DNA of 64,000 nucleotides from the IMG/VR virus record IMGVR_UViG_3300037781_000042, positions 1-64,000 of that record. One strand, 5' to 3'. The notes under the pieces are model-generated. The model did not search any database. It was not told where the DNA came from and was given only the letters and a program-made list of their open reading frames with translations. Positions 6,107 through 36,623 of this stretch are shown in pieces. The translations under genes and the position numbers were made by a program. Each line of letters begins with the position of its first letter. The first letter of the stretch is position 1. The DNA is from a virus. Taxonomy: Duplodnaviria > Caudoviricetes.

Positions 6107-6931
6107 ATGATAAAATTTGAAAATTTTGCAGAAGCTTTAGAATCAATCCTTTCTAATTTAGTAGATGAACCAGAATATTCTACTTCACCTAGAGGACAAC
6201 AAACCAATGAAATAATTAATTATTCTTTTAAATTAGAAAATCCAAAATCTTGTATTTTTGAAAATGAATATCATTCTTCTAATTTAAATTACATAGCAGG
6301 AGAACTTGTTTGGTATTTTAGAAAACAAAATGATTTAGAATTTATTTCAAAATATTCATCTTTTTGGAATCATATTGCAAATGAGGACGGTACTTGTAAT
6401 TCAGCTTATGGACATTTAATTTTTAATGGACAATATCAATGGGCCCTTTCTTGTTTAGAAAAAGATATTAATTCTAGACAAGCAATAATTCATTTTAATA
6501 ACGAATCTCACCAATATGAAGGAAATAAAGATTTCGTTTGTACGATGTATTGTAATCTTTTTATAAGAGATAATAAACTTCATTTATCTACTCAAATGAG
6601 ATCAAATGATGTTATCTTTGGTTTAATTAATGACGTAGCATTTTTTACTACTTTACAACAACAAGCTCTCTTACATTTACAAAAAACTTATCCTAATTTA
6701 GAACTTGGATATTATTATCATTATGCAAATTCTTTACATTTATACGAAAAACATTTTGATAAAGTTTCTAAAATGCTTACTTCAAAATTTATTCCGAAAG
6801 AACTTCCCGAAGTAAAAAGAGAACTCATTACTAGAGATGGAGAAATTTCTCATTCTTTAATGAAAATAGAAGAAGAAAGCATTTCTAATTTCACAGACGA
6901 GTTCTATAAATTCTTAAGAACAAATATATAG
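6107..6931 (+). CDS. gp42: Thymidylate-synthase-fold enzyme, dCMP hydroxymethylase type (T4 gp42-like)
   Basis: SRQAII, catalytic CTMY and MRSNDVIFGLINDVAFF. The ThyA N177-equivalent position is Asp, as in T4 gp42 (RSNDVVFGFRNDYAW). Also HYANSLHLYEKHF. Confidence 0.75.
   Translation: MIKFENFAEALESILSNLVDEPEYSTSPRGQQTNEIINYSFKLENPKSCIFENEYHSSNLNYIAGELVWYFRKQNDLEFISKYSSFWNHIANEDGTCNSAYGHLIFNGQYQWALSCLEKDINSRQAIIHFNNESHQYEGNKDFVCTMYCNLFIRDNKLHLSTQMRSNDVIFGLINDVAFFTTLQQQALLHLQKTYPNLELGYYYHYANSLHLYEKHFDKVSKMLTSKFIPKELPEVKRELITRDGEISHSLMKIEEESISNFTDEFYKFLRTNI
6923..6931 (+). promoter_or_regulatory. Putative late promoter AATATATAG
   Basis: Exact motif overlapping the stop codon of the preceding gene, 24 nt before ORF 6955. 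Confidence 0.6.
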
Positions 6932-6954
6932 AATATAATTTTTTATATTACTGA

Positions 6955-7329
6955 ATGTACAAATTATTTGAAGAATATTTTGGTGATTTAAACGAATCGG
7001 AATCCTTTGACGATTATCCTAAAGCAGCAACAGAAAATGCTAAAAAAGCATTAAAATGGAGAGATGAATATGGAAGAGATGTTGTAAAAGGAGGAACTAA
7101 AGTAGGATGGGCTAGAGCAAATCAATTAGCTAAAAGAGAATCTTTATCTAGAGATGTAGTTTCTAGAATGGCACAATTCAATAGACATAGAAAAAATTCT
7201 AAAATAGCAGATAAATATAAAGGCGAGCCGTGGAAGGATAACGGATATTTAAGTTGGCTTTTGTGGGGCGGAGATGCCGGAGTCGACTGGGCCATTCGTA
7301 AAATGGAACAACTTAGAAAAAATAAATAA
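6955..7329 (+). CDS. Small phage head-associated domain protein with an N-terminal capsid-targeting-like peptide
   Basis: YPKAATENAKKALKW..GGTKVGWARANQLA..LS...V.RM..F.RH...GYLSWLLWGGDAG resembles a domain seen in phage head-morphogenesis proteins. N-terminus is KLFEEYFGDLNE. Confidence 0.55.
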   Translation: MYKLFEEYFGDLNESESFDDYPKAATENAKKALKWRDEYGRDVVKGGTKVGWARANQLAKRESLSRDVVSRMAQFNRHRKNSKIADKYKGEPWKDNGYLSWLLWGGDAGVDWAIRKMEQLRKNK

Positions 7330-7336
7330 TTAAAAA

Positions 7337-7885
7337 GTGAAAAAAATAGTAGAATCATATAGAGCATATCATCTTATTAAAGAAAATAATGATGAACTTT
7401 TAGCAAAAGAAAAAGTTAAACTTACAGAATTAGAATCAAAAGAAAATCAATTAAAAAAAGAAATATCTTCTCATGAAATTGATTTAGAAGAAACTATAGA
7501 AAAGATGAAAGAAATAGATTCTGAAATTAAAGAGATTGAAGAAGAAATTAATAAAGTCAAATCTAAATCTAGTCAAGCCTGGAATGAAGTAACAAATGCT
7601 CATAGAAAAGCTAAATCAGAAGGGAGAAATCTAACACACGGGGAAATGAGTTCTATATTATTTGACTATGGAATCAAAGGAGCAGAAAAATCTGCTTTTT
7701 ATAGTGCAAAAGGTAGAATGAATGGATTAATTAAAAAGCAAGATAAATGGAGTGAACTAAATGCTCATAAATATGAATTAGAACAATCTATCGGTACAGC
7801 TAAATTAAATCTTTCTAAAACACAAAATTCTATAAAGACTACAAAAACGAATATTCAAAAATATTCTCAAACCCAAATGTTTTAA
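7337..7885 (+). CDS. Coiled-coil hypothetical protein
   Basis: 182 aa, GTG start, with long E/K heptad stretches. Confidence 0.7.
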   Translation: MKKIVESYRAYHLIKENNDELLAKEKVKLTELESKENQLKKEISSHEIDLEETIEKMKEIDSEIKEIEEEINKVKSKSSQAWNEVTNAHRKAKSEGRNLTHGEMSSILFDYGIKGAEKSAFYSAKGRMNGLIKKQDKWSELNAHKYELEQSIGTAKLNLSKTQNSIKTTKTNIQKYSQTQMF

Positions 7886-7911
7886 AAGATAATAACGTTT
7901 TCATTTTTAAC

Positions 7912-7946
7912 AATCTCTACTAATTAATTTTAGTAGAGATTTTTTT
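7912..7946 (+). terminator. Rho-independent terminator
   Basis: aatctctacta / tagtagagatt 11-bp stem followed by a T run. Confidence 0.7.
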
Positions 7947-7972
7947 ATTTAAAAAATTTTTCTTATATTACA
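7941..7972 (+). promoter_or_regulatory. Putative early promoter (TTTTTTATTTAAAAAATTTTTCTTATATTACA)
   Basis: A 32-nt identical copy lies at 22850-22881 and a near copy at about 28275-28307. Each heads a cluster of non-structural genes. Confidence 0.55.
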
Positions 7973-8006
7973 TCATGTTCAATTAACACTTATAGGAAAA
8001 AGTAAA

Positions 8007-8696
8007 ATGGGTTATACAACAGATTTCGTAGGATCGTTTAAAACTGATAAACCAGTCGATGAAAATATATTTAAATTGGTTAATGGATTAGCAGGAACGA
8101 GAAGAATGAAAAGAGAAGGTCTTCCAAAAGAATATGGAGTAGAAGGAGAGTTCTATTTTGAAGATGATGGAGATTATGGACAATCGACCAATCCTAAAAA
8201 TGGAAAAATTGTAAATTACAATCAACCTCCAAGTATTCAACCGAGTTTATGGTTACAGTGGATGTTTGAAAAAGACATGCAAACTATAGTTTGGGATCAA
8301 GGAGAAAAATTTTATTCTTATGTAAATTGGTTAGAATATTTAATTAATAGAATATTAAAGCCTTCTGGTTATGTAGTGAACGGGAAATGCGAATATCAAG
8401 GAGAAGATCGGTCTGATAGAGGAGAAATTGTTGTTGAGAATAATGTAATTTATTTGGATGGACATAAAGCCCCTGAAAAAGATTACCCTCAATATGATAT
8501 TTTAAATGCTTTTGGTTTAAAACCTTCAAAAACTTACTATAAAGATCCTCGAAAGGAAATTACTCTTTCTGAAGAAGAAGCAAAAAAGATATTAGTATCT
8601 AAGGTAGACCAAATAGAATCGGATTACTTAGAAGAAATATTAACCTATTTTATTTTTGATGACATAACTTATAAAATTATAAGAGAAAAAGGATAA
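8007..8696 (+). CDS. Conserved phage hypothetical protein
   Basis: 229 aa with GYTTDFVGSF, QPSLWLQW and WDQGEKFYSYVNWLEYLI. SD-like AGGA upstream. Confidence 0.75.
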   Translation: MGYTTDFVGSFKTDKPVDENIFKLVNGLAGTRRMKREGLPKEYGVEGEFYFEDDGDYGQSTNPKNGKIVNYNQPPSIQPSLWLQWMFEKDMQTIVWDQGEKFYSYVNWLEYLINRILKPSGYVVNGKCEYQGEDRSDRGEIVVENNVIYLDGHKAPEKDYPQYDILNAFGLKPSKTYYKDPRKEITLSEEEAKKILVSKVDQIESDYLEEILTYFIFDDITYKIIREKG

Positions 8697-9982
8697 TGAA
8701 AGATATTTTAAAAGATTGTCCCGAAAAAGAAACTCTATTACATTTAGGAACTCTTGCTGAAGAAAATGGATTTGAAATTTATTTAGCGGGAGGATTCGTA
8801 AGAGATTCTTTATTAGGAATAGAAAGTAAAGATTACGATATTGGTGTTGTAGGAGATGCTTTGGAATTTACTAAAATTCTTGAAAAAGAATTAAAAGTAA
8901 GAGCAACTATATTTAAAAGATTTGGAACTTCTGTTATTTCTTATAAAGGAAATCAATATGAATTTGTAGGAACTAGAAAAGAAGAGTATGTAAAAGAATC
9001 TAGAAATCCTATAGTTAGTATTGGAACAATGGAAGATGATATTAATAGAAGAGATTTTACTATTAATAGTATGATTTATAAATTAAATCCAAATGTAAAA
9101 GATAGACTTATTGATTTACATAATGGTCAAGAAGATTTAAAATATCAATTTATTAGATGTGTAGGAGATCCTGAAGTAGTTTATTCCGATGATCCTTTGA
9201 GAATGTTAAGAGCTATTAGATTTTCAGTAAAATTAAATTTTGCAATTGAAGAAGATACTTATGATGCTATTAAAAAGTTATCGTCTAGAATAGAAATAAT
9301 TTCAACTGAAAGAATAGTAGTTGAATTTATGAAAATGTTAAAATCAGATTATCCTGTGTACGCTATTCAAATGCTAGAAGAATCTAACTTATTAAAATAT
9401 ATTCTTCCTGAAATAAGAGAAAATTTAGATGAAAGCCTTAAAGTTTTAGAATGGGTTAGTTTTAAATCTAAAGATGAATATTTAAGATTAATATCTTTAT
9501 TAACTGTTATTGATAAAAGAAAGATTTTGGATATTTATAAAAGATTAAAATTTTCTAAAAGAGAAAGATTTAGAGCAGTAGATCTTTTAAATATGTTAAG
9601 TGCTTTTTCATCTTCTAAAAGACCTCCATTAAATATTTGTAGAGAACTTTTAATTAACAATAATTCTAGAAAAATAAAAGATTTAATTAAGCTTTTAAAA
9701 GTAGTATGTTTATTAAAAACAAATCCGTTAAAGAAACATTTAGAAATGATTCATTATTTAATAGATGAAAATGACTCTGGAAAATTTTATAATGTACATG
9801 AAAATATTTCAGGAGATTTCATAATGAATAGATTTAATGTTGAAACTGGACCAGAAATTGGTAAAATAAAAAAACATATTATAGAACAAATAATATCTGA
9901 TAATTTAGGAACTTCAAAAGAAGATATTGAAAAGTATATTGATGACAATATAGAAAAAATTAAAACTTTACCTATTAAATAG
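8696..9982 (+). CDS. cca: Class II tRNA nucleotidyltransferase (CCA-adding enzyme)
   Basis: GGFVRDSLLG..DYDI, RKEEY flexible loop, DDINRRDFTINS and DDPLRMLRAIRF. It has KRFGT rather than the poly(A)-polymerase signature. Confidence 0.85.
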   Translation: MKDILKDCPEKETLLHLGTLAEENGFEIYLAGGFVRDSLLGIESKDYDIGVVGDALEFTKILEKELKVRATIFKRFGTSVISYKGNQYEFVGTRKEEYVKESRNPIVSIGTMEDDINRRDFTINSMIYKLNPNVKDRLIDLHNGQEDLKYQFIRCVGDPEVVYSDDPLRMLRAIRFSVKLNFAIEEDTYDAIKKLSSRIEIISTERIVVEFMKMLKSDYPVYAIQMLEESNLLKYILPEIRENLDESLKVLEWVSFKSKDEYLRLISLLTVIDKRKILDIYKRLKFSKRERFRAVDLLNMLSAFSSSKRPPLNICRELLINNNSRKIKDLIKLLKVVCLLKTNPLKKHLEMIHYLIDENDSGKFYNVHENISGDFIMNRFNVETGPEIGKIKKHIIEQIISDNLGTSKEDIEKYIDDNIEKIKTLPIK

Positions 9983-9990
9983 GATATAAT
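9962..9990 (+). promoter_or_regulatory. Putative middle promoter AAAACT-N17-TATAAT
   Basis: Exact hexamers with a 17-nt spacer, overlapping the end of cca. Confidence 0.55.
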
Positions 9991-9995
9991 TAAAT

Positions 9996-10433
9996 ATGTT
10001 AATTAGTAAAGATTTATATAAAAAGATATTCATTAAGAAAATAAAGAATATTCAAGAAGTTGAAAGTATTATTTCTAAAATGAATGAATTCGGAATTTTA
10101 TTAGATCATGATTTAACAAGTTCTGACAGTGTTATTAAACTTTTAGTATTAATATCAGGAACTTCTGAAGTTAAAAATTTAGAAGATTTAATATATTGGT
10201 GGATCTTTGAAGATGTAGAAAAGAATCTCTATGATAGTAATACTGGTGAAGTAATCTATAATTTAACAGAACTTGAAGATTTTGCAAATTATGTAGTAGA
10301 AAATTTATTTGATAATAGAGTAAAGGTATCAGAAGAATACGAAAGAAATATAGAACATTTATTCTTTTATAAATGTTCTGGTGAAGTTGTCGATTTTTTA
10401 AATGATATTTTTATTAATGGAGATAAAATCTAA
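9996..10433 (+). CDS. Hypothetical protein
   Basis: 145-aa ORF immediately followed by the RNA ligase ATG. Confidence 0.7.
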   Translation: MLISKDLYKKIFIKKIKNIQEVESIISKMNEFGILLDHDLTSSDSVIKLLVLISGTSEVKNLEDLIYWWIFEDVEKNLYDSNTGEVIYNLTELEDFANYVVENLFDNRVKVSEEYERNIEHLFFYKCSGEVVDFLNDIFINGDKI

Positions 10434-11435
10434 ATGGAAAGAAAATTAGCTTCAGTTAGAACAATTAAAAATAAAGAACCTATTGAAGGTGCTGATAGAA
10501 TAGAATTAGTACATGTAGATGGATGGAAATGTGTTTCTAAAAAAGATGAATTTGAAATAGGAGATAAATGTATCTATTTTGAAATTGATTCTTTTCTACC
10601 TATAGAAGATCAATTTGAATTTCTTAGAAAGTCTTGCTATAAAAATAACTCTGTAGTAGGAGAAGGATTTAGAATAAAAACAATTCGGCTTCGGGGACAA
10701 ATCTCTCAGGGGCTTGTAATTCCAATTCCGGATGAATATAAAGAACTTGAAGAAGATACCGATTTAACTGAAGAATTAGGTGTTAAGAAATATGAACTTC
10801 CTGAAAGGTTTGGTGTTACTGATCGTAAAGGGAATTTTCCAATTGAAATCCCGAAGACTGATGAAAATAGAATTCAAAACTTAAAATCTAATAGAAATAA
10901 TTGGATGAAAGAAGAAGTAGAATATATCATCACAGAAAAATGTGAGGGTAGTTCAATGACAGTCTTTTTAAATAATGATCAGTATGGAGTATGTTCTAGA
11001 AATATGTTGTTAAATGAAGATGGTGAAGGCATATTTTCTAGAGTTGCTAGAGAATTAAATTTAAAAGAATGTTTGATTAATTATGGACATAATATTGCAA
11101 TTCAAGGTGAATTGATAGGACCTGGAGTCCAAGGAAATTATTACGATCTTAAAAAACACGAATTTAGGGTATTTAATATTTTTGATATAGATACTAGATT
11201 ATATTTGAGATGGGATGATGTTGAAAAGATATGTGAAGATTACAATTTACAAACAGTCCCTGTACTTGAGAAAAGAGTTTTAGTTATTGATGGAATGCAA
11301 GAAGAGATTCTAAAATATGCAGATGGTAATAGCATGCTTGTAAATAAGCCTAGAGAAGGCGTAGTATTTAAAACTCACGACAATTCTATTTCTTTTAAAG
11401 CTATAAATAATGAATATTTATTAAATGGAAAATAG
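10434..11435 (+). CDS. RNA ligase, DRB0094-like (Rnl2-type with N-terminal OB domain)
   Basis: MERKLASV..I..IEGADRIE...VDGWKCV..K.EF..GD.CIYFEID, RLRGQISQGL, adenylation motif TEKCEGSS, IQGELIGPGVQGN, REGVVFK and SFKAINNEYLL. Confidence 0.85.
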   Translation: MERKLASVRTIKNKEPIEGADRIELVHVDGWKCVSKKDEFEIGDKCIYFEIDSFLPIEDQFEFLRKSCYKNNSVVGEGFRIKTIRLRGQISQGLVIPIPDEYKELEEDTDLTEELGVKKYELPERFGVTDRKGNFPIEIPKTDENRIQNLKSNRNNWMKEEVEYIITEKCEGSSMTVFLNNDQYGVCSRNMLLNEDGEGIFSRVARELNLKECLINYGHNIAIQGELIGPGVQGNYYDLKKHEFRVFNIFDIDTRLYLRWDDVEKICEDYNLQTVPVLEKRVLVIDGMQEEILKYADGNSMLVNKPREGVVFKTHDNSISFKAINNEYLLNGK

Positions 11436-11985
11436 TGTAGAAATATGGACAGATGGTTCATGTCCTATGAATAGAGGTTCTAATCCTGGTGGATGGGCCT
11501 CTATTTTAGTTATTCCTGAGTCGAGATGGGAAACTATTGAAGAAAATCTAAGTATAAATTATAATAAAGAAGACAAAAAAACTTATAAATGTCTTGAAAT
11601 TTCTGGAAATGATGATACTACAACTTCTAATAGAATGGAGTTAACAGCAGTAATTGAAGGAATTAAGAAAGCTTTAGAATTAGGTTTTGAAGAAATTTTA
11701 GTTTTTAGTGATTCGGAATATACTGTAAAATCTGCAATGGTTTGGTCATTAAAATGGGCAAAAAATAAATGGCATAAAAAAATTAAAAATAAAGATCTTA
11801 TGAAAGAACTTTATACTTTATGTTCAGAAAATAATGTTAAAGTTGAATGGGTAAAAGCAAGAGATGGAAATTTTTTTAACGAAAGAGCAGATGAGTTAGC
11901 AAGAGAAGAAGCTGCTAAATTAAATGAAGAACCTGAAGAGGAAAATGAATGGATAAAAATAGATATGAACAATACTTTTATTTAA
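11425..11985 (+). CDS. rnhA: Ribonuclease HI
   Basis: DEDD set: WTDGSC, NRMELTAVI, SDSEY and NERADELA. WVKAR replaces the usual WVKAH. Confidence 0.85.
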   Translation: MENSVEIWTDGSCPMNRGSNPGGWASILVIPESRWETIEENLSINYNKEDKKTYKCLEISGNDDTTTSNRMELTAVIEGIKKALELGFEEILVFSDSEYTVKSAMVWSLKWAKNKWHKKIKNKDLMKELYTLCSENNVKVEWVKARDGNFFNERADELAREEAAKLNEEPEEENEWIKIDMNNTFI

Positions 11986-12395
11986 AGACCCATGAAGATT
12001 TGGTAAAATTTGTAAAAATGTGTCTTCAGTATAATATGAAAATAGAACCCATAGAAGATGGACGTTCTTTTGAAGAGTATTATTTACAGAAACATCAAGA
12101 TCACGATGGTAACTATCCAATGGATTATAATCGTACTAGTACAGAAGAACATTTTAATAAATATGGATGGAGAGACGCGTTAGAAATGTATTGGAATCCT
12201 GACATTCAAATTTGGGAATCTAAATATAAGAGAATGTTTTTTGCGTCAGATATAAGCAATCAAAGTTTCAGTGTTATGAACTCTGCTTCAAAAATTACTA
12301 ACGAAAAATTATTGTCTACAGAAGAAGGAAGTTTAATACCTAAAGAAATAGATTTCGATAAATATCTTGAACAGTTTAATAAAGAAGAAGTATGA
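11949..12395 (+). CDS. Hypothetical protein
   Basis: 148-aa ORF overlapping both neighbours. Confidence 0.65.
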   Translation: MDKNRYEQYFYLKTHEDLVKFVKMCLQYNMKIEPIEDGRSFEEYYLQKHQDHDGNYPMDYNRTSTEEHFNKYGWRDALEMYWNPDIQIWESKYKRMFFASDISNQSFSVMNSASKITNEKLLSTEEGSLIPKEIDFDKYLEQFNKEEV

Positions 12396-12796
12396 ACTTA
12401 AAAGAATTTAAACAAGCATTTTTTGGATCAGATGCTCAATATGAAGCATTGACTGATAAAGATAAAAATGCAAATAGATTTATGATAAATAGAATGATAG
12501 CAACACGTTATCCTTTAATTTCTAATTTTGTAAATTCTATAGGAACAGATGGAGCCGTTGTTGTAGATACTCTTAGAAAGTTTTGTAAAGAACGAGGCAT
12601 TTCTAATTTACCTTATGTTCCTACAAAAAAGAATACTGATAAAAAGAAATTTGATTGGTACCCTAAAAACAAGGAAATTTTAAAAAGATATTGTAATCAT
12701 CACCAAATAGCACTTAAAGAATTTGATGAAAGGTTAAAATGGAATCCAATAGAAACAAAAAATGAATTTACAGATTTTGAAAAAATCTTTAAATAG
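12392..12796 (+). CDS. Hypothetical protein, possibly clamp-loader small subunit (gp62-like)
   Basis: RFMINRMIA...ISNFVN weakly resembles the T4 gp62 FMxNR motif. Size fits. Confidence 0.4.
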   Translation: MNLKEFKQAFFGSDAQYEALTDKDKNANRFMINRMIATRYPLISNFVNSIGTDGAVVVDTLRKFCKERGISNLPYVPTKKNTDKKKFDWYPKNKEILKRYCNHHQIALKEFDERLKWNPIETKNEFTDFEKIFK

Positions 12797-12842
12797 AAAT
12801 TTTGTTATATAGATTATCTATGAACAAAAAATATGAAAATAA

Positions 12843-14414
12843 TTGAAAGTAAGACTTACAGCAGATAAAAATTTAATTTACGTTGAACAAGCAACTGAAT
12901 TCGAGTTGCGCCAACTTAGATTATCTTTTAATGTTAGAATTAGAAATCATTGGAATCATCCTAAAGTAAAAGCAAAAATTTGGGATGGTTATTTTAATTT
13001 TTTCAAAAAGGATAAGTATATTCCAGTCGGTCTATGGAAAAAACTATTAGACATTTGCGACAAATACAATATTACAATTAATAAGAATTTTGTAAATGAT
13101 ATTCGAGATTCTTCTATTAAAAAAGAAGATATAGAAGAATATTTTAAAGTGTTCTTTGATGGAAATAAATATCAGCCTAGAAAATATCAAAACGAAGCTG
13201 TTTATATGTTTTCTAAATATAAAAGAATAGTTGCTGAAATGGCAACTTCCGCCGGGAAAACTTTAATAATTTATATGGTCTTTCAATATATCAATCATTT
13301 AATGAAGCTCAGAGATGAAGAAAACTTTAAGATGTTGATTATAGTACCTAATATTCAATTAGTGACTCAGACGTTTCAGGATTGGCTAGATTATGATGCA
13401 GGTAAAGATTCATTTAGAGCTTTAATGGTATCAGGGGAAACTGATCATAAAGATAGAAGCTTAGATGAATATGATGTAGTAATTGGAACGTTTCAATCTT
13501 TATCTAAAAAGCCTAAAGATTGGTTTTCTGTTTTTGAATGTGTTTTTGTAGATGAATCACAAAGCGCTGGAGCCGTTTCTTTAAAGAATATTTTAACTAA
13601 GTGTGATAGAGCAGAATATAAATTAGGAATTTCAGGAACTACTAAAATAAAAGGAGATGATGCAGAATCTTTCGGGATTCAAGAACATCTTGGTCCTTTA
13701 CTTTATAAAATAAGTCCTGATCATTTAATTAAAAATGATTTTGCTACTCCTGTAAATGTAAAAGTATTTAGACTTTCTTATTTAGATAATGAGAATAGAC
13801 AAGGAATAGGAAAACTTGCAAATAGAAAAAGTTTTGATAAAGCTAAGTTATTATCTTTAGAAAAAGATTTAGCAATAGAATCTAAAAAGAGATTAAAATT
13901 TATTTTAAGTCTTTTACAGAAAACAAAAAATAATGCTTTGGTTCTTTTTGGAAGCGTAGAGAAAGGATATGGAAAAAAGATAAAAGATACTTTAAGAGAA
14001 ATGACTTCCGAAAAAGAAGTTTATTATGTAGACGGAGGAACTCCTTCAGAAAATAGAAATGAATATAAAAAGTTGATGGAAGAAGGAGATAATAAAATTT
14101 TAGTCGCTTCTTTTGGAACCTTTGCAACAGGAATTTCTATTAAAAATTTACATTATGTTTTCTTAGTTGAATCATTTAAATCAGAGACTATTATAAAACA
14201 AAGTATTGGTCGTGGTATGAGACAATTAGATGGTAAAGATAAAGTAGTTATAGTTGATATTGTAGATGATTATAGAGTTTTAGAAGAAAGAAACGGAAAA
14301 ACATATTTAAAGAAAGGACAAAAACCCAACTATTTGTATAAACAGGGTGGCGAAAGATTAGACATATATAAATCAGAAGGTTATCCAATTAAAGTTTATA
14401 AGGTATCTTTATGA
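12843..14414 (+). CDS. uvsW: UvsW-like SF2 DNA helicase
   Basis: PRKYQNEAV, ATSAGKTLII, VFVDESQ, GISGT, TFATGISIKNLH and QSIGRGMR. TTG start, with a TATATAG late-motif variant at 12806-12812. Confidence 0.9.
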   Translation: MKVRLTADKNLIYVEQATEFELRQLRLSFNVRIRNHWNHPKVKAKIWDGYFNFFKKDKYIPVGLWKKLLDICDKYNITINKNFVNDIRDSSIKKEDIEEYFKVFFDGNKYQPRKYQNEAVYMFSKYKRIVAEMATSAGKTLIIYMVFQYINHLMKLRDEENFKMLIIVPNIQLVTQTFQDWLDYDAGKDSFRALMVSGETDHKDRSLDEYDVVIGTFQSLSKKPKDWFSVFECVFVDESQSAGAVSLKNILTKCDRAEYKLGISGTTKIKGDDAESFGIQEHLGPLLYKISPDHLIKNDFATPVNVKVFRLSYLDNENRQGIGKLANRKSFDKAKLLSLEKDLAIESKKRLKFILSLLQKTKNNALVLFGSVEKGYGKKIKDTLREMTSEKEVYYVDGGTPSENRNEYKKLMEEGDNKILVASFGTFATGISIKNLHYVFLVESFKSETIIKQSIGRGMRQLDGKDKVVIVDIVDDYRVLEERNGKTYLKKGQKPNYLYKQGGERLDIYKSEGYPIKVYKVSL

Positions 14415-27627: not shown

Positions 27628-27650
27628 AAACTTATTAGAGAATAACTAAA

Positions 27651-27974: not shown

Positions 27975-27975
27975 T

Positions 27976-28275: not shown

Positions 28276-28307
28276 TTTTTTATTTTAAAAATTTTTATTA
28301 TATTACA
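28275..28307 (+). promoter_or_regulatory. Putative early promoter (variant)
   Basis: ttttttattttaaaaatttttattatattaca followed by TTCAATTAAC, like the 7941 copy. Confidence 0.5.
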
Positions 28308-28337
28308 AAGTATTCAATTAACTAAAGGATAATAAAA

Positions 28338-28628: not shown

Positions 28629-28630
28629 AT

Positions 28631-29305
28631 ATGGACTTAAAAAGATTTGAAGATATAGAAATAAAAGAATTTGATTGTTCACATGGTGAAAAAGTAGTAA
28701 TTTTTAGATATATTGGAGAAGGAGATCCATATAAAGAACTATCTAACGTTATTCAAACATATACTGAAGACTGTCCAATGCATCAATTTATAGAACAAAC
28801 AGGAGACAATCCTTGGGTGAGAATTTTAGTAACAGAATTAAATAACATTACGTTTGAAAAATATCATAATTTTAAAAAAATTTTTACTGAAGAAAATTTT
28901 TTAATTCATTTAAACTATCCAGAAATTCCTTTAACTTCGGTTTATAAGTATAAAGATGATAAATTTGTAATTGTAGATTGGGTAGATAACAAAGAAGATG
29001 ATATATTAGCAAATGTTGATGATGTTGAATTAGTGTATATTGTTACTAAAGAAAATTTATTAAATTTTATAGAAAATAAATTATCTAAAAAAGAATTTAT
29101 TCAAAGTGCAGTTAATCAAAATTATTTTGAATATTGTTATAAAGAATCTGAAATTATAAATGAATATAAAAGCTTTTCTGAAATACCTTCAGAGTATTTT
29201 CCAGAAAATGAAGTTTTTTATAATATTGAAGATATGGTTTATGATTCAGAAAAGCAAAAAGAAGATTTTTTATCTCTAATAGGATTTAAAGCGGTTGATA
29301 TATGA
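28631..29305 (+). CDS. Hypothetical protein
   Basis: 224-aa ORF. Confidence 0.7.
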   Translation: MDLKRFEDIEIKEFDCSHGEKVVIFRYIGEGDPYKELSNVIQTYTEDCPMHQFIEQTGDNPWVRILVTELNNITFEKYHNFKKIFTEENFLIHLNYPEIPLTSVYKYKDDKFVIVDWVDNKEDDILANVDDVELVYIVTKENLLNFIENKLSKKEFIQSAVNQNYFEYCYKESEIINEYKSFSEIPSEYFPENEVFYNIEDMVYDSEKQKEDFLSLIGFKAVDI

Positions 29306-29332
29306 AGGAAATTTCAAGAAACTTATTCTAAA

Positions 29333-29584
29333 ATGGTATCTTTAGAAGAAAAATTAGATTATATTTTAAATTTTTTAGATAAACTAGAATTCGAGAATTT
29401 AGGCCGAAATAATAATAAATATTTTTTTGGGAAACTGCTTACGTTTTTTATTGATAACAAATATCATTTAAGTGAAATTAAAATTGTTTTAGTTGCTACT
29501 AAATACCTTCCAGAAAATCTTGAATTGGTATTTTATAGAAATAAATTAGTTGATTTTTATAATAAAATAAAAAAGGAAAAATGA
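29333..29584 (+). CDS. Hypothetical protein
   Basis: 83-aa ORF with an ATGA overlap to the next gene. Confidence 0.6.
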   Translation: MVSLEEKLDYILNFLDKLEFENLGRNNNKYFFGKLLTFFIDNKYHLSEIKIVLVATKYLPENLELVFYRNKLVDFYNKIKKEK

Positions 29585-29886
29585 TGAGAAAGAGCAGGAA
29601 GGAAATGTCTAAAAAAGAATTAGAAAAAGTAAGAGCAAAGGAAAGAGAATATTATCAAAAGAATAGAAAAAGAATTTTAGAAAATTCTAGAAAAAGAAGA
29701 TTAGGAAAAGGAATTTTACAAACAAAGGGAACACTAGCTAAATATACTGCAGAAGAGTTAAAAGAAAGACAAAAAGAACAAAAGAAAAAATGGGCAGATA
29801 AAAATAGTAAAAAATATTATAAAGAAAATAGAGAAACTATTTTAAAGAAAGCTAAAGAATATTATCATAAAAGGAAAAGAAAATGA
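29581..29886 (+). CDS. Highly basic K/E/Y-repeat protein
   Basis: REYYQKNRKRI and KKYYKENRETI repeats. No nuclease domain. Confidence 0.6.
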   Translation: MMRKSRKEMSKKELEKVRAKEREYYQKNRKRILENSRKRRLGKGILQTKGTLAKYTAEELKERQKEQKKKWADKNSKKYYKENRETILKKAKEYYHKRKRK

Positions 29887-30545
29887 AACCGTTCAAAGAA
29901 AGACAAAAAGAGTATCAAAAAGAATACTACGAAAAGAATAAAGAAAAGATAAGAAAATATCAAAAAGAATATAGAAAAAACAATAAAGAAAGAACAAAAG
30001 AATACTACGAAAAAAATAAAGAAAAGATAAAAGAATATCAAAAAGAATATAAAAAAAGAAATCCTAATAAAACAAAAGAATATTACGAAAAAAATAAAGA
30101 AAAGATAAACAAAAGACATAAAAAATATTTAAATGATAATAAAGATTCTTGGAATAAATATCAAAACGAATATAAGAAACAGAAGTACAAAGAAATGTCA
30201 TTGGAAGAAAAAAAGAAATTTAATTTTGAAAAATATTCTTATAAAATAAGAAAAAAATTAATGAATAATGTGAACGATATAATTAATAATATTATCCAAG
30301 AAGATTCTTATTCTAATCTTTCTTTTGATTTAAATAGAACAAAAAATGAAAGACTTGAATTAAATATAAATGTTAAAGATTATAATAAATCTTATTCTTA
30401 TACTCAAAGAAAAAAACTATTAGAACAATTGTTTGATACAGCTAAAACAGAAATACACGATAACTATTCAGATAGAATAGAATTGAAGATGTCAAAAGGA
30501 AAAAATAATATAATAATAAATTTAAAGGTTAAAGAAAATAAATGA
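29883..30545 (+). CDS. K/E/Y-repeat protein with a C-terminal domain
   Basis: Repeated KEYYEKNKEKI units. No HNH or GIY-YIG motif. Confidence 0.65.
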   Translation: MKPFKERQKEYQKEYYEKNKEKIRKYQKEYRKNNKERTKEYYEKNKEKIKEYQKEYKKRNPNKTKEYYEKNKEKINKRHKKYLNDNKDSWNKYQNEYKKQKYKEMSLEEKKKFNFEKYSYKIRKKLMNNVNDIINNIIQEDSYSNLSFDLNRTKNERLELNINVKDYNKSYSYTQRKKLLEQLFDTAKTEIHDNYSDRIELKMSKGKNNIIINLKVKENK

Positions 30546-31423
30546 TAGATATTTTAGAACATCACAGAATAAATGAAGAAAATAAAATTGATTGTTTAGA
30601 TCATGGATTTGTTAGACTTGTAGATGTACTTCCTAGAGTAGTTGAAGATGGTGCTGAACCTACAGGCGATTTTGCTATTGTTCAAGCTGCTCGGGTTTCC
30701 TATGGTGCAGGGACTAAAACGGTAAATCAAGACAGAGGGCTTATAAGATATTTAATGAGACATCTTCATACGACGCCATTTGAAATGGCTGTTGTCAAGA
30801 TACATTGTAAAATGCCTATCTTCGTTGCTCGTCAATGGATAAGACATAGAACAGCAAGTGTAAATGAATATTCAGGTAGGTATTCTATAATGTCTCCAGA
30901 TTTTTATGTTCCAGAGCTAGATAGAATTCAAAATCAATCTAAAACAAATAATCAAGGAACTGATTTTGATGGAGATATTTCTTTATCTACTCAAATGATG
31001 ATTCAAAAAAGAATGCAAGAAGAACAACAAACTGCATATTCTAATTATGAAAATTATTTAGAAGCAGATGTAGCAAGAGAACTTTCAAGAAATAATCTTC
31101 CAGTTTCTAATTATACTGAGTGGTACTGGCAAACAAATTTACACAATTTATTTCATTTCCTTGCTCTTAGATTAGATTCTCATGCACAATATGAAATAAG
31201 AGTTTTTGCTGAAGCAATGTACGAATTCATTAAACCTATATTTCCACTTGCTTGTGAGGCTTTTGAAGATTATAGATTAAATGGAGATAAAATTTCTAAT
31301 GAAGAAAAGAACATTATTCATAGATTAATAGGTGATGATGAAGCAATGCTTTCTGATATTTTAGAATCTTCTAACTTATCTAAAAGAGAAATTACTGAAT
31401 TTAAAAATAAGTTTAATATATAA
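30542..31423 (+). CDS. thyX: FAD-dependent thymidylate synthase ThyX
   Basis: IVQAARVSY, HTTPFEMA, ThyX motif RHRTASVNEYSGRYS, ARELSR..LP and HAQYEIR. Confidence 0.95.
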   Translation: MIDILEHHRINEENKIDCLDHGFVRLVDVLPRVVEDGAEPTGDFAIVQAARVSYGAGTKTVNQDRGLIRYLMRHLHTTPFEMAVVKIHCKMPIFVARQWIRHRTASVNEYSGRYSIMSPDFYVPELDRIQNQSKTNNQGTDFDGDISLSTQMMIQKRMQEEQQTAYSNYENYLEADVARELSRNNLPVSNYTEWYWQTNLHNLFHFLALRLDSHAQYEIRVFAEAMYEFIKPIFPLACEAFEDYRLNGDKISNEEKNIIHRLIGDDEAMLSDILESSNLSKREITEFKNKFNI

Positions 31424-31460
31424 ATTGTAAATTTTTTAAATAAAAAATAAATTTAGTATT

Positions 31461-31664
31461 ATGAATGAATATAGAATTAAATTAAAGGATGCTAGAACTA
31501 AAACAGTAAATGCAAATTCTTATAAAATAGAAAATGGATTTTTTATATTTGAATCAAATAATCAAATGGTATTTTCAGTATCTACAGAAAGAGTAAAAGA
31601 TGTAGAGCAAATACAAACAGTAAATGAATCTACATTTAATTCATCAGATATGATCTGTGATTAA
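31461..31664 (+). CDS. Small hypothetical protein
   Basis: 67-aa ORF. Confidence 0.6.
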   Translation: MNEYRIKLKDARTKTVNANSYKIENGFFIFESNNQMVFSVSTERVKDVEQIQTVNESTFNSSDMICD

Positions 31665-31683
31665 ACTTTAAAGGAAAGTTATA

Positions 31684-32607
31684 TTGACTGATTATGAAAT
31701 ATTAGGAGTTAAACCTGGTGCATCTGAAAAGGAATTAAAATCTGCTTGGAGAAAGCTTGCTGCTCAATATCATCCAGATAAAAATAATGGATCAGAAGAG
31801 TCGGAAGAAAAATTTAAGCAGATTAATGAAGCTTATAACAATATAAAATCTGGGAAAACAGTTAAAGAAAATCCTTTTACTTCATATAGATGGAATAAAA
31901 GAAGAACTCAAAGAAGACAATCTGTTAATTTTGAAGAATTTTTTAACGATGATTCTATATTTGAAGATTTTTACAATTTTGGAGGAGAAACAAAAACCGT
32001 AAAACCAGATGTAAAAATTCCTTTGAATTTAGAAATGAAGCTTTTCATAAACATTGAAAATTTCTTTAAACCTTTTACTAAAGAAATAAAATATGTAAAA
32101 AGAGTTCAGTGTCCTAATTGCAAAGGAAAGGGAAATTCTGTAGAAGATTGTAAAACTTGTAATGAAAAAGGTTATCTTTCAAAGGAAGTAACTGAGAAGT
32201 TTAAATTTCCTAAAAATGTTCCAGCAGGAGCTTCAATTAAATTTGAAGGATGCGGAAATGAATTTGAGGGAAAAACAGGATTTTTTAAAATTCAAATACT
32301 TCCAAAAGTTGATGATGATTCTTATTATGTAGAATTAGAAAATAATAAATTTGATATTTATAAATTGTATGAAATAGATATTATGCAATTTGCTTTAGGA
32401 TTTGAATATACTGTAGAAAATTTAGAAAAACAAGAAGTAAAGATTAATATTGATTCTTTAAAGGCTTTAGAAGAAACAAAGCAACATATTATTAAAGAAG
32501 GAGGAATTCCGATAAAAGGAGGAAAGAAATCTGATTTAATAATTAAATTTAAAATTAAAGAATTGGATGAAAAAACTATAAAACATTTAAAGAAATTTAA
32601 AATGTAA
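31684..32607 (+). CDS. dnaJ: DnaJ-family co-chaperone
   Basis: J domain (YEILGV...YHPDKN...FKQINEAY), one zinc site ([16 protein letters not shown]) and a C-terminal substrate-binding region. TTG start. Confidence 0.88.
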
Positions 32608-32655
32608 TTTTATTAATAATGGGGGAAACATTATAAATAACAAGGAACACTGATT

Positions 32656-33030
32656 ATGAAGGTAGATGATATATTTGAGTTAATTACAGATGTAGAAAAA
32701 CCTGGGACGATGATTAAAGATTTTATAAGAAATAATTTTTCTGAACTTTCTTCTGAAGAAAGACAAAAGTTATACAATAAAATTTATTCTAAATGGTATA
32801 GAAACAAAAATAAAGATTATTTTAAAAAGAAAAATAAAGAGTATAGAGAAAAAAATCCTGAGAAAATGCGAAAGTATATGAAAAAATACTATCGTAAAAA
32901 TAAGGAAGAAATAAGAAAAAGAACTATAGAAAATAGAAAAAAACTTTTTGAAAAAGATCCTGCTGCTGAAAAGGCATATAGAGAATATCAAAAGGAATAT
33001 AGAGAAAAACAAAAAGAAAAAAATTCATAA
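32656..33030 (+). CDS. K/E/Y-repeat basic protein
   Basis: KEYREKNPEK and KKYYRKNKEEI repeats. Confidence 0.6.
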   Translation: MKVDDIFELITDVEKPGTMIKDFIRNNFSELSSEERQKLYNKIYSKWYRNKNKDYFKKKNKEYREKNPEKMRKYMKKYYRKNKEEIRKRTIENRKKLFEKDPAAEKAYREYQKEYREKQKEKNS

Positions 33031-33037
33031 TATATAG
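33029..33037 (+). promoter_or_regulatory. Putative late promoter AATATATAG
   Basis: Exact motif 23 nt before ORF 33060. Confidence 0.6.
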
Positions 33038-33059
33038 TTTATATAAAAAAATAAAAAAT

Positions 33060-33326
33060 ATGGTTGAAAATTTTGAACAATACTCAAAGATGAATGAAAC
33101 AGATTCTGAATCTTTGACTAGAAAAATAGAAGCTGACTTGTCTGAAAAGTTTTTTGAATTATCAGAAGGACCAGACGGTAGCGGAGAAAATATAGGAGAA
33201 TGGTTAGCAAATCAAATTGTAAGTCATGTTAAATCTCTTACTTACGGAGAGTACCCAGAAGAAGACGCAAGAGAATTTTTAGAAGATGTTAAAAGAGGAT
33301 GGAAAAAATCTGATTTTACAATATAA
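33060..33326 (+). CDS. Small acidic protein with a capsid-targeting-like N-terminus
   Basis: MVENFEQYSKMNE, downstream of the late motif. Confidence 0.6.
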   Translation: MVENFEQYSKMNETDSESLTRKIEADLSEKFFELSEGPDGSGENIGEWLANQIVSHVKSLTYGEYPEEDAREFLEDVKRGWKKSDFTI

Positions 33327-33347
33327 AAAAAGATATAAAAAAAAGAT

Positions 33348-33773
33348 ATGAAAAACCAAATTAAACAAGTTAAAGATTTTCGTGGTTTTATAAACGAAAG
33401 AATTTCTAATGTTACTTCAGATTATTATAATCCTGATACTAATAAAAATTATTATGATGAAGAAGATACTGATAATCGTCCATTAACAGTAGAAAATTTT
33501 AAAACTACTTTTACAGGAGAAGGAGATTATTTATATTATAGTACTGAAAAAGGTTTTATTGCATGTGATGTAGAACCTGAAGGATATACATCTCCTGAAA
33601 ATACAGAAAATTATACTGGAGTAAGTTATTTTAAAGGAAATAAAGAAGTAGAAGAATGTATTAAAGAAAAATATGATTTAAAAGTTTCAGATATTCAATA
33701 TGTTGACATAGAATATGCTAAAAATCATTTTTCGGAAAACGAAGAAATAATGAACATATTAAATAGATTTTAA
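33348..33773 (+). CDS. Acidic protein with a capsid-targeting-like N-terminus
   Basis: MKNQIKQVKDFRGFINE. Confidence 0.65.
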   Translation: MKNQIKQVKDFRGFINERISNVTSDYYNPDTNKNYYDEEDTDNRPLTVENFKTTFTGEGDYLYYSTEKGFIACDVEPEGYTSPENTENYTGVSYFKGNKEVEECIKEKYDLKVSDIQYVDIEYAKNHFSENEEIMNILNRF

Positions 33774-33796
33774 TTTTCAGAAAATTAAATAAAAAG

Positions 33797-33825
33797 TAAA
33801 CTTTTAAAGTTTTAAAGGATATAAT
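33797..33825 (+). promoter_or_regulatory. Putative middle promoter TAAACT-N17-TATAAT
   Basis: Hexamers with a 17-nt spacer upstream of primase. Confidence 0.55.
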
Positions 33826-33856
33826 TAATAAAAATTATATCCTTTTTTATTTTTAT

Positions 33857-34903
33857 ATGGCAGATTTAAAACAAATAATAGAAGAAGCATTACAAAAAAG
33901 ATTTGCAAATGAAAGATCTAAACAAAGAGTAGTAGTTGCTTCAGATAGATTAAATTTTGCATGTCCTTATTGTGGAGATTCTACTAAAAGTTCCTCAAAG
34001 AAAAGAGGAAATCTTTATTTAGAGAGCGCTTCCTATAAATGTTACAATTGTGGTCATTACTCTTCTCAGAAAAGATTTTTAAAATCTTTAGTAGAGATGG
34101 ATCTTTATTTTGAGAAGATACCTGAAAATCTTTTAGTAAATTCTAATTATGATGGTATTGCAGGATCCTTTAATCCTGCTACAATTTCTACTTTATCTAA
34201 TGACTTAGAAGAAATGGTAGAAAAATATTCTTTAACTAGAGAAAAGTTTAAAAGGTTATTTAGTTTAGTTGAAGTACAAGGAACTAAGATAGAAAAATAT
34301 TTAAATTCTAGATGTATTTTCAATTATGATAATTTCTTATATGATGAATTAAATCATAAATTATTCATTTTAAATAGAGATGCAAATTCTGATAGAATTA
34401 TAGCATATCAAATTAGAAATTTTAATAATCCTAATTTTAAATATTTAACATATAAATTAGAAACTATGTATAAGGAGTGCAGAAAGGAAATTCCTGATGA
34501 AGAAGACTTTCAGACATTAAATACTATATCAAAGTATTTTAATATTCTTAATATTAATATTAGGATGCCTATTACATATTTTGAAGGTCCTATAGATGCA
34601 TACTTTTATAAAAATGCTGTCTCTTTAACTTCTATAGAAACAAAACCAATTATAGAAACAAAAAGTACTCAATACTTATTTGATTGTGATAAAAGAGGAA
34701 ATGAAGAATCTAGAAAACTTTTAAAAGAAAAGAAAAAAGTTTTTATGTGGAGAAAGTTTTTAAAGGATATAAAAATGGAATATCCAAATCCTTACTCAAA
34801 AGTAGATTTCAATGATGTTATTATTCATTGTGCTCATAATAAATTACATCCAAATTTTGATAAATATTTTACAGACAACTCATTAGACATGATCAATATA
34901 TGA
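33857..34903 (+). CDS. gp61: DNA primase (T4 gp61-like)
   Basis: Zn finger NFACPYCGDS..KKRG...YKCYNCG and TOPRIM motifs EGPIDA and FDCD. Confidence 0.85.
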   Translation: MADLKQIIEEALQKRFANERSKQRVVVASDRLNFACPYCGDSTKSSSKKRGNLYLESASYKCYNCGHYSSQKRFLKSLVEMDLYFEKIPENLLVNSNYDGIAGSFNPATISTLSNDLEEMVEKYSLTREKFKRLFSLVEVQGTKIEKYLNSRCIFNYDNFLYDELNHKLFILNRDANSDRIIAYQIRNFNNPNFKYLTYKLETMYKECRKEIPDEEDFQTLNTISKYFNILNINIRMPITYFEGPIDAYFYKNAVSLTSIETKPIIETKSTQYLFDCDKRGNEESRKLLKEKKKVFMWRKFLKDIKMEYPNPYSKVDFNDVIIHCAHNKLHPNFDKYFTDNSLDMINI

Positions 34904-35592
34904 AAAATAATATAGGAATTTTAATTCCAACATACAAAAGAGATAAACAAATAATTAAAAGGGCTATTTCATCTGCAATTAGTCAAAGAAATTTCATTGA
35001 TTTAAATGAATATATTTTAAATATTTTTATTTGTTCTGATACTGAAAAGAAAGAAGAGCACGTAGAAGAAGCAATTAAAGAATGTTATCAGAATTCTTTT
35101 GATAATAAATTTATTTATTCTGATGATGATAAATTTACAATGGATTCGCAGATAATTACTTATTATGAAACTTTAGGTTATCATTCAAATAATTATGCAA
35201 ACGATCCAAGAAATAAATTAATTCAAATGGCATCTAAAAATAATATGGACTATGTAGTATTTTTAGATGATGATAATATACTTTTCCCAGAATACATAGA
35301 TGAATCTTTAAAAGTACTTTTAGAAGAAGATGTAGATTTTACTATTTCTCAAATACTTCATTTAGGACCTGTTAATAAAGAATTATTAGGAGAACCTCCA
35401 TTAATATTGACAGGAGAACAAGTAAAACTTCAACATATAGATACACTTCAATTTTTCTTAAAAATGCATGTTATGGAAGAACATGGATGGAATAAAGAAG
35501 AAGGATATTTAGCAGATGGATATACATTTGAATCAATAGGAGAAAAATATAAATACGCTTATACTAATAAGCTTTTAGCAATTCACATATAA
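34900..35592 (+). CDS. GT-A fold glycosyltransferase (GT2-like)
   Basis: ILIPTYKR, PRN, DYVVFLDDDN, IDTLQF and ADG. ATGA-coupled to primase. Confidence 0.8.
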   Translation: MKNNIGILIPTYKRDKQIIKRAISSAISQRNFIDLNEYILNIFICSDTEKKEEHVEEAIKECYQNSFDNKFIYSDDDKFTMDSQIITYYETLGYHSNNYANDPRNKLIQMASKNNMDYVVFLDDDNILFPEYIDESLKVLLEEDVDFTISQILHLGPVNKELLGEPPLILTGEQVKLQHIDTLQFFLKMHVMEEHGWNKEEGYLADGYTFESIGEKYKYAYTNKLLAIHI

Positions 35593-35603
35593 AGGAGACT
35601 ACA

Positions 35604-35987
35604 ATGTCTGAGATACAAAACATATTAATAGATTTACCAGAACAAATTAAAAATTCTGAATTGGAATTACTTGATTTAAATGATAAATTATCTAGTACTA
35701 AAAAGGAATTAGAATCAATAGAATCAAGTTTAATGCATTCTATATTAAATGAAATGGATGAAAAAGGAAAACCTGTTTATTCTAATGCAGAAAAAAGAAA
35801 TACAGAGCTTGCAAAAAGAAGTGCTGAATATCCAGATACTCTTGATTTAAAAAGTAGTATTGATAAATTAGAAAGACAATCTAAAGAACTTCAAATAGAA
35901 ATTAAATTTTTAAGAGATAAACAAGCAAATTATAGAGCTATAGCAGCTTTTTCAAATGAAACTTTAGTTGGTGCTTTAAATAGTTAA
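35604..35987 (+). CDS. Coiled-coil hypothetical protein
   Basis: 127 aa with SD AAGGAG. Confidence 0.7.
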   Translation: MSEIQNILIDLPEQIKNSELELLDLNDKLSSTKKELESIESSLMHSILNEMDEKGKPVYSNAEKRNTELAKRSAEYPDTLDLKSSIDKLERQSKELQIEIKFLRDKQANYRAIAAFSNETLVGALNS

Positions 35988-36014
35988 AACTATATTAATT
36001 TTTTGAAGTATAAT
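35986..36014 (+). promoter_or_regulatory. Putative middle promoter AAAACT-N17-TATAAT
   Basis: Exact hexamers with a 17-nt spacer. Flanks (AAGTATAATTAATAT) are nearly identical to the 51544 copy. Confidence 0.6.
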
Positions 36015-36050
36015 TAATATAAAGATTGTTAAATAATCAAGGAAAAACAA

Positions 36051-36623
36051 ATGAAGTTAATAATAGTTGAAGGTCCGGATAGAGTTGGTAAAAATACGTT
36101 AGTTTCAAATATAACAGATCGGTTAGATGATTATTTTTCAGTTCATTTTATCGGTCCTCCTGACGTTCCTGATCCTTTAGAGTATCAATTTACAATTCCT
36201 TTTAAATACAAAGCACAGAAAACTTCTTCTATTTTAGAACAAGAATTATCAGAAACTGTAGTTTGGAATAGATCTCACTTAGGAGAATACGTATATGGAC
36301 AAATTTATAGAAATGAAAATCCAGAAGATATTATGAAAAGAATATGGGAATTTGAAAAAGGACTTTTTTCTACCATAGGAAATGAAAATATTTATGGAAT
36401 TAATTTGTACGCAGATCCTGAATATTTAATAGGAATAGACGACGGAGAATCTTTTACAACAGATTTAGAAAAGAAGAAAATTGAAATAAATTATTTTAAA
36501 GAAGCTTTTGATAAATCCTTATTAAGAAATAAAATGGAAATTAACATTCAAGTAGATAATGGAAATTTAAAAACTCCTCAAACTATTTATGAAGAAGTAA
36601 CGACAAGATTTAATAAAATATAA
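36051..36623 (+). CDS. Deoxynucleoside monophosphate (thymidylate-like) kinase
   Basis: IIVEGPDRVGKNT P-loop and WNRSHLGEYVYG (DR-motif equivalent). Confidence 0.75.
   Translation: MKLIIVEGPDRVGKNTLVSNITDRLDDYFSVHFIGPPDVPDPLEYQFTIPFKYKAQKTSSILEQELSETVVWNRSHLGEYVYGQIYRNENPEDIMKRIWEFEKGLFSTIGNENIYGINLYADPEYLIGIDDGESFTTDLEKKKIEINYFKEAFDKSLLRNKMEINIQVDNGNLKTPQTIYEEVTTRFNKI

Follow-up and report, generated by a model that had tools for sequence, protein, structure and literature searches.

What does the thymidylate synthase (TS)-fold enzyme of an uncultured phage make, and what becomes of its product? The question is raised by a gene at positions 6107-6931 (+) of IMG/VR record IMGVR_UViG_3300037781_000042 (Duplodnaviria; Caudoviricetes), whose first 64 kb are the stretch of DNA analysed here (the window). 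The record is a single viral contig of 211,581 bp (G000; 27% G+C, linear ends). Its completeness was estimated by CheckV as 82%; ~18% of the genome may be absent from it, and extension of the contig ends via relatives recovered nothing. The phage is present, as assembled contigs, in many pond metagenomes. For local searches 276 open reading frames (ORFs) were called on the contig, and the genome was compared with five others (G001 to G005), of which G001 is the closest large relative, and with related loci, designated by L numbers. An earlier note on the window had proposed a dispersed cytosine modification pathway consisting of this enzyme, a GT2 glycosyltransferase and a nucleotide kinase. 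In our analysis, the best explanation is a T4-type pathway in which 5-hydroxymethylcytosine (5hmC) is made before replication, with a kinase resembling thymidylate kinase (TMK) and with ThyX as the source of thymidine monophosphate (dTMP); we put the probability of this explanation at roughly 60%.

The 274-aa product of 6107-6931 matched the Pfam family Thymidylat_synt (PF00303; E 2.5e-20) and is encoded by the sole TS-fold gene on the 211,581-bp contig. Its best relatives in the PDB were the CMP hydroxymethylase MilA (E 1e-19) and the deoxycytidine monophosphate (dCMP) hydroxymethylase of T4 (E 1.4e-19); E. coli ThyA gave only ~1e-8. In blastp it showed 30% identity to T4 gp42 (E 4e-22). We aligned the protein with E. 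coli ThyA, T4 gp42, RB69 gp48, the homologue from Enterococcus phage VPE25, the Xp12 enzyme, gp10 of Ralstonia phage RsoM2USA and 13 metagenomic relatives. The segment MRSNDVIFGLIND aligned with T4 MRSNDVVFGFRND and E. coli QRSCDVFLGLPFN; its final Asp is therefore the equivalent of ThyA N177 (GLIND here, GFRND in T4, LPFN in E. coli), as the earlier note had read it. The catalytic Cys (ThyA C146, T4 C148) is present, KDFVCT being aligned to SDFMCT of T4. At the position of ThyA L143, three residues before this Cys (C-3), the protein has Asp (D-F-V-C here, D-F-M-C in T4, L-A-P-C in E. coli); this column moves by one gap between alignments, and D-x-x-C was read directly. Asp169 is also kept. 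These four residues (Cys, C-3 Asp, Asp169 and Asp177) are common to the protein and all 13 relatives, as are E58, W80, Y94, R166, H207 and Y209.

The marker residues can be read against published rules. Asp in place of N177 specifies dCMP as substrate, Asp or Glu in place of L143 correlates with a non-methyl product, and Asn in place of D169 marks the flavin-dependent 5-hydroxy-dCMP synthases, being present in all those tested (Lee et al., NAR 2026, PMC13326640). Ser167 and Arg126 are deoxyribose determinants, replaced by Ala and Lys in MilA, whose substrate contains ribose (PMC5175136); both are present here (MRSND and NSRQ). The known enzymes in our alignment obeyed the rules: RB69 gp48, a 5-hydroxy enzyme, has D169N, W80A and G173V, and the 5-methyl enzyme of Xp12 has Asn at C-3. 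Every published marker residue of a T4-type 5-hydroxymethyl-dCMP (hm-dCMP) synthase is thus present, which supports, at the level of sequence, the earlier assignment of 6107-6931 to the dCMP hydroxymethylase type. The earlier note had left the product as either 5-hydroxymethyl- or 5-hydroxycytosine. The first of these agrees with the residues; the second is disfavoured, since the predicted enzyme retains Asp169 and so lacks the Asn characteristic of 5-hydroxy-dCMP synthases. W80 and G173 are retained as well. Homologues with the same signature adjoin homologues of T4 beta-glucosyltransferase in VPE25 and RsoM2USA; beta-glucosyltransferases require a hydroxyl acceptor. In a tree of hydroxymethylase homologues the gene grouped with T4-like relatives (L005-L007), the deep branches being unresolved.

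An enzyme of this type would make hm-dCMP before replication, as in T4. It would add the methylene group of methylenetetrahydrofolate to C5 of dCMP, and water would then hydrate the intermediate. A TMK-like kinase encoded at 36051-36623 (+) would convert hm-dCMP to the diphosphate, in place of the absent T4 gp1; a host nucleoside diphosphate (NDP) kinase would yield hm-dCTP; and the T4-like phage replisome would incorporate hm-dCTP into DNA. Homologues of T4 gp41 (helicase), gp43 (DNA polymerase) and gp61 (primase) were detected on the contig by blastp. ThyX would make dTMP independently. The resulting 5hmC DNA would be expected to resist most type II restriction enzymes.

The kinase (190 aa; phrog_761, E 8e-12), predicted to act on hm-dCMP, has a TMK-type P-loop, and its linkage to the hydroxymethylase was observed directly in other viruses. 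Hydroxymethylase homologues were found in 15 related viral loci (37-48% identity), and in 11 of these a kinase homologue lies immediately upstream, often overlapping; in the present genome, unlike these loci, the two genes are 29 kb apart. In RsoM2USA the kinase homologue gp6 (30% identity) is 1 kb from the hydroxymethylase homologue gp10. The kinase family profile matched RB69 gp45 (hhalign 95%, E 2e-8, 122 columns), and comparison with T4 gp1 revealed similarity in the P-loop only (hhalign probability 60% over 26 N-terminal columns; blastp E 0.13). The AlphaFold 2 (AF2) model of the kinase (pLDDT 85) gave Foldseek matches to TMK, deoxycytidine kinase (dCK) and YorR (3kb2), the same structural matches as those of the TMK-like kinases in the RB69, DLP3 (gp78) and RL38J1 clusters (PMC13326640, Table 1). 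In G005 a gp56-like dCTPase (E 8e-21; C1:60692-61156), the hydroxymethylase and the kinase family are present and gp1 is absent, suggesting that the kinase does the job of gp1. These findings support the earlier note in placing the TMK-like kinase in one pathway with the hydroxymethylase, and mark it as a genuine partner of that enzyme. A ClpP-family protease gene (PF00574, E 3e-74) at 36732-37334 (+) directly follows the kinase gene.

ThyX, the flavin-dependent thymidylate synthase, is encoded at 30542-31423 (+) as a single copy (PF02511, E 4e-53; RHRxxS motif as RHRTAS), which supports the earlier proposal that dTMP is supplied separately. ThyX and hydroxymethylase both release tetrahydrofolate rather than dihydrofolate. 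The absence of a dihydrofolate reductase (DHFR) from the contig fits this pairing, because neither reaction would need one; homologues of ribonucleotide reductase, alc and denA were likewise not found there. In L037, a relative whose GT2 glycosyltransferase shows 72% identity to the one described below, the ThyX gene (2919-4895) is split by an intein (Thy1 - Intein_splicing - Thy1, 658 aa).

We compared the observed counts of palindromic hexamers on the whole contig with maximal-order Markov expectations. CATATG was observed once against 48 expected (observed/expected, o/e, 0.02) and GATATC six times against 66.5 expected (o/e 0.09). No other C-containing palindromic hexamer is depleted as strongly; among the palindromes with two G/C pairs, the remaining 22 had o/e of 0.6-1.5. 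NdeI and EcoRV, which recognize CATATG and GATATC, are the only C-containing 6-bp-palindrome enzymes that fully cut the 5hmC DNA of T4gt (Flodman et al., PMC7653180 Table S1). The chance of these two sites heading the 24 if ranks were random is 1 in 276. Sites cleavable on 5hmC DNA were more depleted than others in this genome (Mann-Whitney, p 0.036) and in G001 (p 0.0014), whose four most depleted sites (GATATC, ATTAAT, CATATG and TTTAAA) are all cleavable on 5hmC DNA. In the 77 kb of T4 that were analysed, GATATC again heads the depleted palindromic hexamers. No DNA methyltransferase family able to explain the pattern was found on the contig. We count this depletion, a genome-wide signal, in favour of 5hmC.

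Several points weigh against a T4-type 5hmC pathway, and they bear on two other explanations. The palindrome test was post hoc and based on commercial enzymes, and the compared genomes include no phage known to be unmodified. The same depletion would arise in unmodified DNA if the host had just NdeI-like and EcoRV-like systems; here o/e is also somewhat low for GGATCC (0.44) and GAATTC (0.60), and G005 does not show the pattern (GAATTC 0.18). The closest relative, G001, lacks a homologue of the kinase and of either glycosyltransferase considered below. Searches of the contig with Pfam, by blastp with T4 proteins and with profiles from T4 and relatives revealed no dCTPase, dUTPase or dCMP deaminase, leaving complete exclusion of dCTP unexplained; the earlier note had looked to a dCTPase elsewhere in the genome. 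Nor was there any match to MazG, MazG-like or gp56 profiles on the ~82% complete contig. The ORF at 33348-33773 was considered as a dCTPase and rejected: its gp56 match had an E-value of only 0.36, and it had no Pfam or PHROG match. G001 encodes a T4 cd-like dCMP deaminase directly after its hydroxymethylase, plus a dUTPase (C1:66123-66515 and 54629-55072).

Replacement of cytosine might accordingly be partial or nil, with hm-dCTP merely competing with dCTP, or with the enzyme serving nucleotide pools and the depletion reflecting host restriction only. The lack of pool enzymes and of alc and denA homologues on the contig would agree with this, as would G005, which has the module yet strongly depletes many C-containing sites. 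Nevertheless, a dCTPase may lie in the part absent from the contig, strong depletion is confined to 5hmC-insensitive sites in both this genome and G001, and the enzyme-kinase pair is widely conserved; we therefore consider incomplete or absent replacement improbable. The other explanation is that the enzyme makes a C5-modified dCMP of another kind: 5-methyl-dCMP (compare Xp12) or 5-hydroxy-dCMP (compare RB69 and DLP3). The N177D substitution sets the substrate only, and TS mutants of the L229/N177D type methylate dCMP. The rule for the C-3 residue is a correlation only (PMC13326640), and 5-methylcytosine (5mC) likewise blocks most type II enzymes (PMC7653180 Table S3). The residues and gene content point the other way. 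C-3 is Asp as in T4, against Asn in Xp12, in which a dCMP deaminase gene adjoins the TS gene and a DHFR gene comes next after it; no DHFR was found in the present genome. D169, W80 and G173 are kept, against Asn169 in the tested 5-hydroxy synthases and Ala80 and Val173 in RB69. The pairing of same-signature homologues with beta-glucosyltransferases also argues for a hydroxymethyl product. We regard a different dCMP product as very unlikely and T4-type synthesis of 5hmC as the best account of the enzyme.

Would 5hmC, once in the DNA, be glycosylated further? A GT-A enzyme could plausibly do so, and there are two candidates. One is a small GT-A (GT2) glycosyltransferase encoded at 34900-35592 (+; PF00535, E 4e-8). 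Its start overlaps the stop codon of the preceding gene as ATGA, confirming the translational coupling described earlier; that gene, 33857-34903 (+), encodes a T4 gp61-like DNA primase (phrog_47, E 2e-17; blastp to T4 gp61, E 4e-8). The GT2 protein has invariant R14, DDD123-125 and D206, and its AF2 model (pLDDT 87) shows a GT-A fold, with RmlT, TarP, AvpGT, TarS and SpsA as top Foldseek matches. Its few homologues (48-76% identity) keep the coupling to primase and the order ThyX-x-DnaJ-x-primase-GT2, as in L036 and L037. The DnaJ of this block (J domain and C-terminal domain; 31684-32607, +, in the window) lies between ThyX and primase, a position kept in both relatives.

The other candidate, outside the window, is a 631-aa fusion of GT2, tetratricopeptide repeat (TPR) and GT25 domains, with two GT-A domains (contig 165783-167678, -; = L025:1783-3678). 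In L009, L012/L013, L015, L016 and L017 the two halves have separate homologues (GT2-TPR, ~390 aa; GT25, ~250 aa) at a distance of 2-5 kb from the kinase-hydroxymethylase pair. The fusion is thus better linked to the hydroxymethylase than is the primase-coupled GT2, a homologue of which was found neither near the hydroxymethylase homologues of the 15 loci, nor in G001 to G005, nor among 50,697 phage records.

The primase-coupled GT2 might glycosylate 5hmC on DNA, a GT-A enzyme replacing the GT-B glucosyltransferases of T4. Its coupling to primase, conserved in relatives, favours this role and is its sole tie to DNA. It is further favoured by the DNA adenine methyltransferases that flank the homologue in L036, by transcription from the promoter class of replication genes, and by TarP among its matches; TarP is the top PDB match of validated GT-A DNA glycosyltransferases (bioRxiv 10.1101/2023.12.21.572611). 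No GT-B enzyme was found on the contig: blastp revealed no homologue of T4 a-gt or b-gt or VPE25 b-gt, and there was no match to Glycos_transf_1. PF09198 also gave no match on the contig in a search run without a positive control; the model does detect RsoM2USA gp2. These searches agree with the earlier proposal of a GT-A enzyme in place of T4-type GT-B enzymes. Nothing beyond primase coupling connects this GT2 with DNA. Besides its absence near hydroxymethylase homologues, its fold matches are those of generic GT2 enzymes (RmlT, TarS, SpsA). Its acidity (pI 4.8) is weak evidence against DNA binding: isoelectric point is an uninformative proxy, the VPE25 b-gt-like protein also being acidic and the genome median pI being 5.3. 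Glucosylated T4 DNA is cut by NdeI and only very partially by EcoRV (PMC7653180), so the strong depletion of GATATC fits bare 5hmC better than T4-style glucosylation. A role of this GT2 in modifying 5hmC appears doubtful.

The fusion protein might instead act on 5hmC, its two GT-A domains perhaps attaching one sugar after the other; such a role is favoured by the position of its homologues in relatives. An NTP-transferase+APH fusion resembling DLP3 gp82 and RB69 gp52:53, further glycosyltransferases and an FkbM methyltransferase are encoded in the same islands. An exact AAAACT-N17-TATAAT site, of the class shared with primase, helicase and kinase, lies 21 nt upstream of the fusion gene. On the other hand, the TPR domains point to a protein or peptide as acceptor, as does a weak resemblance of the GT2-TPR part to YolJ of SPbeta, the peptide glycosyltransferase SunS. 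In this genome the fusion gene lies among leucine-rich repeat (LRR) cargo genes, the protein is acidic, and in the relatives the islands may serve glycans on DNA and other glycans alike. Glycosylation of 5hmC by the fusion is possible, and less likely than not. No genes for NDP-sugars, to which the earlier note had also looked, were found on the contig. The more specific picture, in which 5hmC is decorated only by GT-A enzymes (GT2, GT2-TPR-GT25 or both) with a mono- or disaccharide that would be new to DNA, in a pathway without T4-type gp56, gp1 or GT-B and with the TMK-like kinase as dedicated hm-dCMP kinase, seems rather unlikely to hold as a whole. The earlier note also overstated the novelty of GT-A enzymes acting on 5hmC, as such enzymes have been described (bioRxiv 10.1101/2023.12.21.572611).

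The islands in relatives have further genes. In L009, L012 and other loci, the kinase-hydroxymethylase pair is accompanied within ~10 kb around position 10000 by one or two C5-DNA-methylase-like genes, a DXD sugar-binding glycosyltransferase, Glyco_trans_1_2 proteins, an EEP-family protein, HtrL_YibB and a conserved 144-aa protein without PDB or Pfam match. The C5-methylase-like, NTP-transferase+APH, 144-aa, EEP and other island families have no homologue in the present contig.

The earlier note had also taken a shared AAAACT-N17-TATAAT promoter as evidence for the pathway. An exact AAACT-N17-TATAAT promoter-like site does precede the primase-GT2 pair (33798-33825, +) and the kinase gene (35987-36014, +), as revealed by scanning. 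The site 13 nt upstream of the hydroxymethylase gene (6066-6094, +), both scanned and read directly, is AAAACT-N17-TATTAT, with one mismatch to the class consensus. The window contains four exact AAACT-N17-TATAAT sites against 0.53 expected. Elsewhere on the contig, exact copies stand upstream of the helicase homologue and of at least eight other genes. Because it lies before helicase, primase and unrelated genes alike, the motif evidently marks a general expression class and not a pathway, and we rejected it as pathway evidence.

The genes around the hydroxymethylase were also inspected. The window encodes a 452-aa Amidoligase_2 protein (PF12224, E 4e-6) at 3860-5218 (+). It was rejected as a hydroxymethylase partner: it is conserved in G001 and G005 (29-32% identity) and is never near the hydroxymethylase there. 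A weak Nmad5 match on 7337-7885 (E 0.0015), which might have suggested a local modification cluster, was coiled-coil noise; SMC, Rad50 and tape-measure models match the same protein. An RNA-repair-like run at 8696-11985 (+) consists of a CCA-adding/poly(A) polymerase family enzyme (8696-9982), an RNA ligase with a PHA02142 OB domain (10434-11435) and an RNase H (11425-11985).

Replacement of cytosine by 5hmC is a known anti-restriction strategy and a textbook concept. If the proposed pathway operates, T4-style pre-replicative 5hmC would extend to uncultured freshwater jumbo phages (this phage and its relatives) with a partly different gene set, comprising ThyX, a TMK-like kinase for gp1 and no recognisable dCTPase. 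Cloning, sequencing and cutting of this DNA should then meet resistance to most restriction enzymes. The conserved pairing of kinase and hydroxymethylase suggests a testable role for TMK-like 'nucleotide kinases' that were left without an assigned role in recent experimental work. In addition, depletion limited to sites unprotected by 5hmC could serve as a sequence-only marker of cytosine-modified genomes in metagenomes.

The closest parallel is T4. Its gp42 has the same active-site signature as 6107-6931, it keeps a separate thymidylate synthase, its replication genes have homologues here, and GATATC, its most depleted palindromic hexamer, is among the two most depleted in the present genome. 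T4 has gp42, gp1, gp56, alpha- and beta-glucosyltransferase and td; here there is no homologue of gp56, gp1, alpha- or beta-glucosyltransferase, cd, alc, denA or frd. The phage studied here has a TMK-like kinase and obtains dTMP through ThyX, not ThyA; its pathway genes are scattered, at 6 kb, 36 kb and possibly 166 kb. The glycosylated 5-hydroxycytosine clusters of RB69, DLP3 and RL38J1 (PMC13326640) also combine a dCMP-acting TS homologue with a TMK-like 'nucleotide kinase'. They differ in having Asn where D169 is Asp here, with W80 and G173 retained here; no arabinose or NDP-sugar genes were found in the present genome, and their glycosyltransferases are GT-B, whereas the GT2 candidates here are GT-A. 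By fold and motif, the primase-coupled GT2 resembles the GT-A DNA glycosyltransferases of Pyle et al. (bioRxiv 10.1101/2023.12.21.572611) in its GT-A fold, R...DDD motif and TarP match. In those clusters a C5 methyltransferase and a dioxygenase produce 5hmC post-replicatively, in the DNA itself; neither enzyme was found here.

Xp12, with 100% 5mC DNA, has a TS homologue that shares N177D and D169 with the enzyme studied here; it has Asn at C-3 in place of Asp, and a DHFR where there is none here. RsoM2USA and VPE25 carry a T4 beta-glucosyltransferase homologue close by (RsoM2USA PF09198, E 7e-24; VPE25 annotated b-gt), unlike the present phage, and their clusters also have dCMP deaminase or dUTPase, neither of which was found here. 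In RsoM2USA (L062, 1-16000), a cluster of genes annotated as hypothetical only encodes a TS-fold protein of hydroxymethylase type (gp10), a dCMP deaminase (gp8), a TMK-like kinase (gp6), a TPR protein (gp4) and a member of the T4 beta-glucosyltransferase family (gp2). RsoM2USA thus shares with the present phage both the TS-fold signature and the kinase homologue, and from its gene cluster this cultured jumbo phage is predicted to have glucosyl-5hmC in its DNA.

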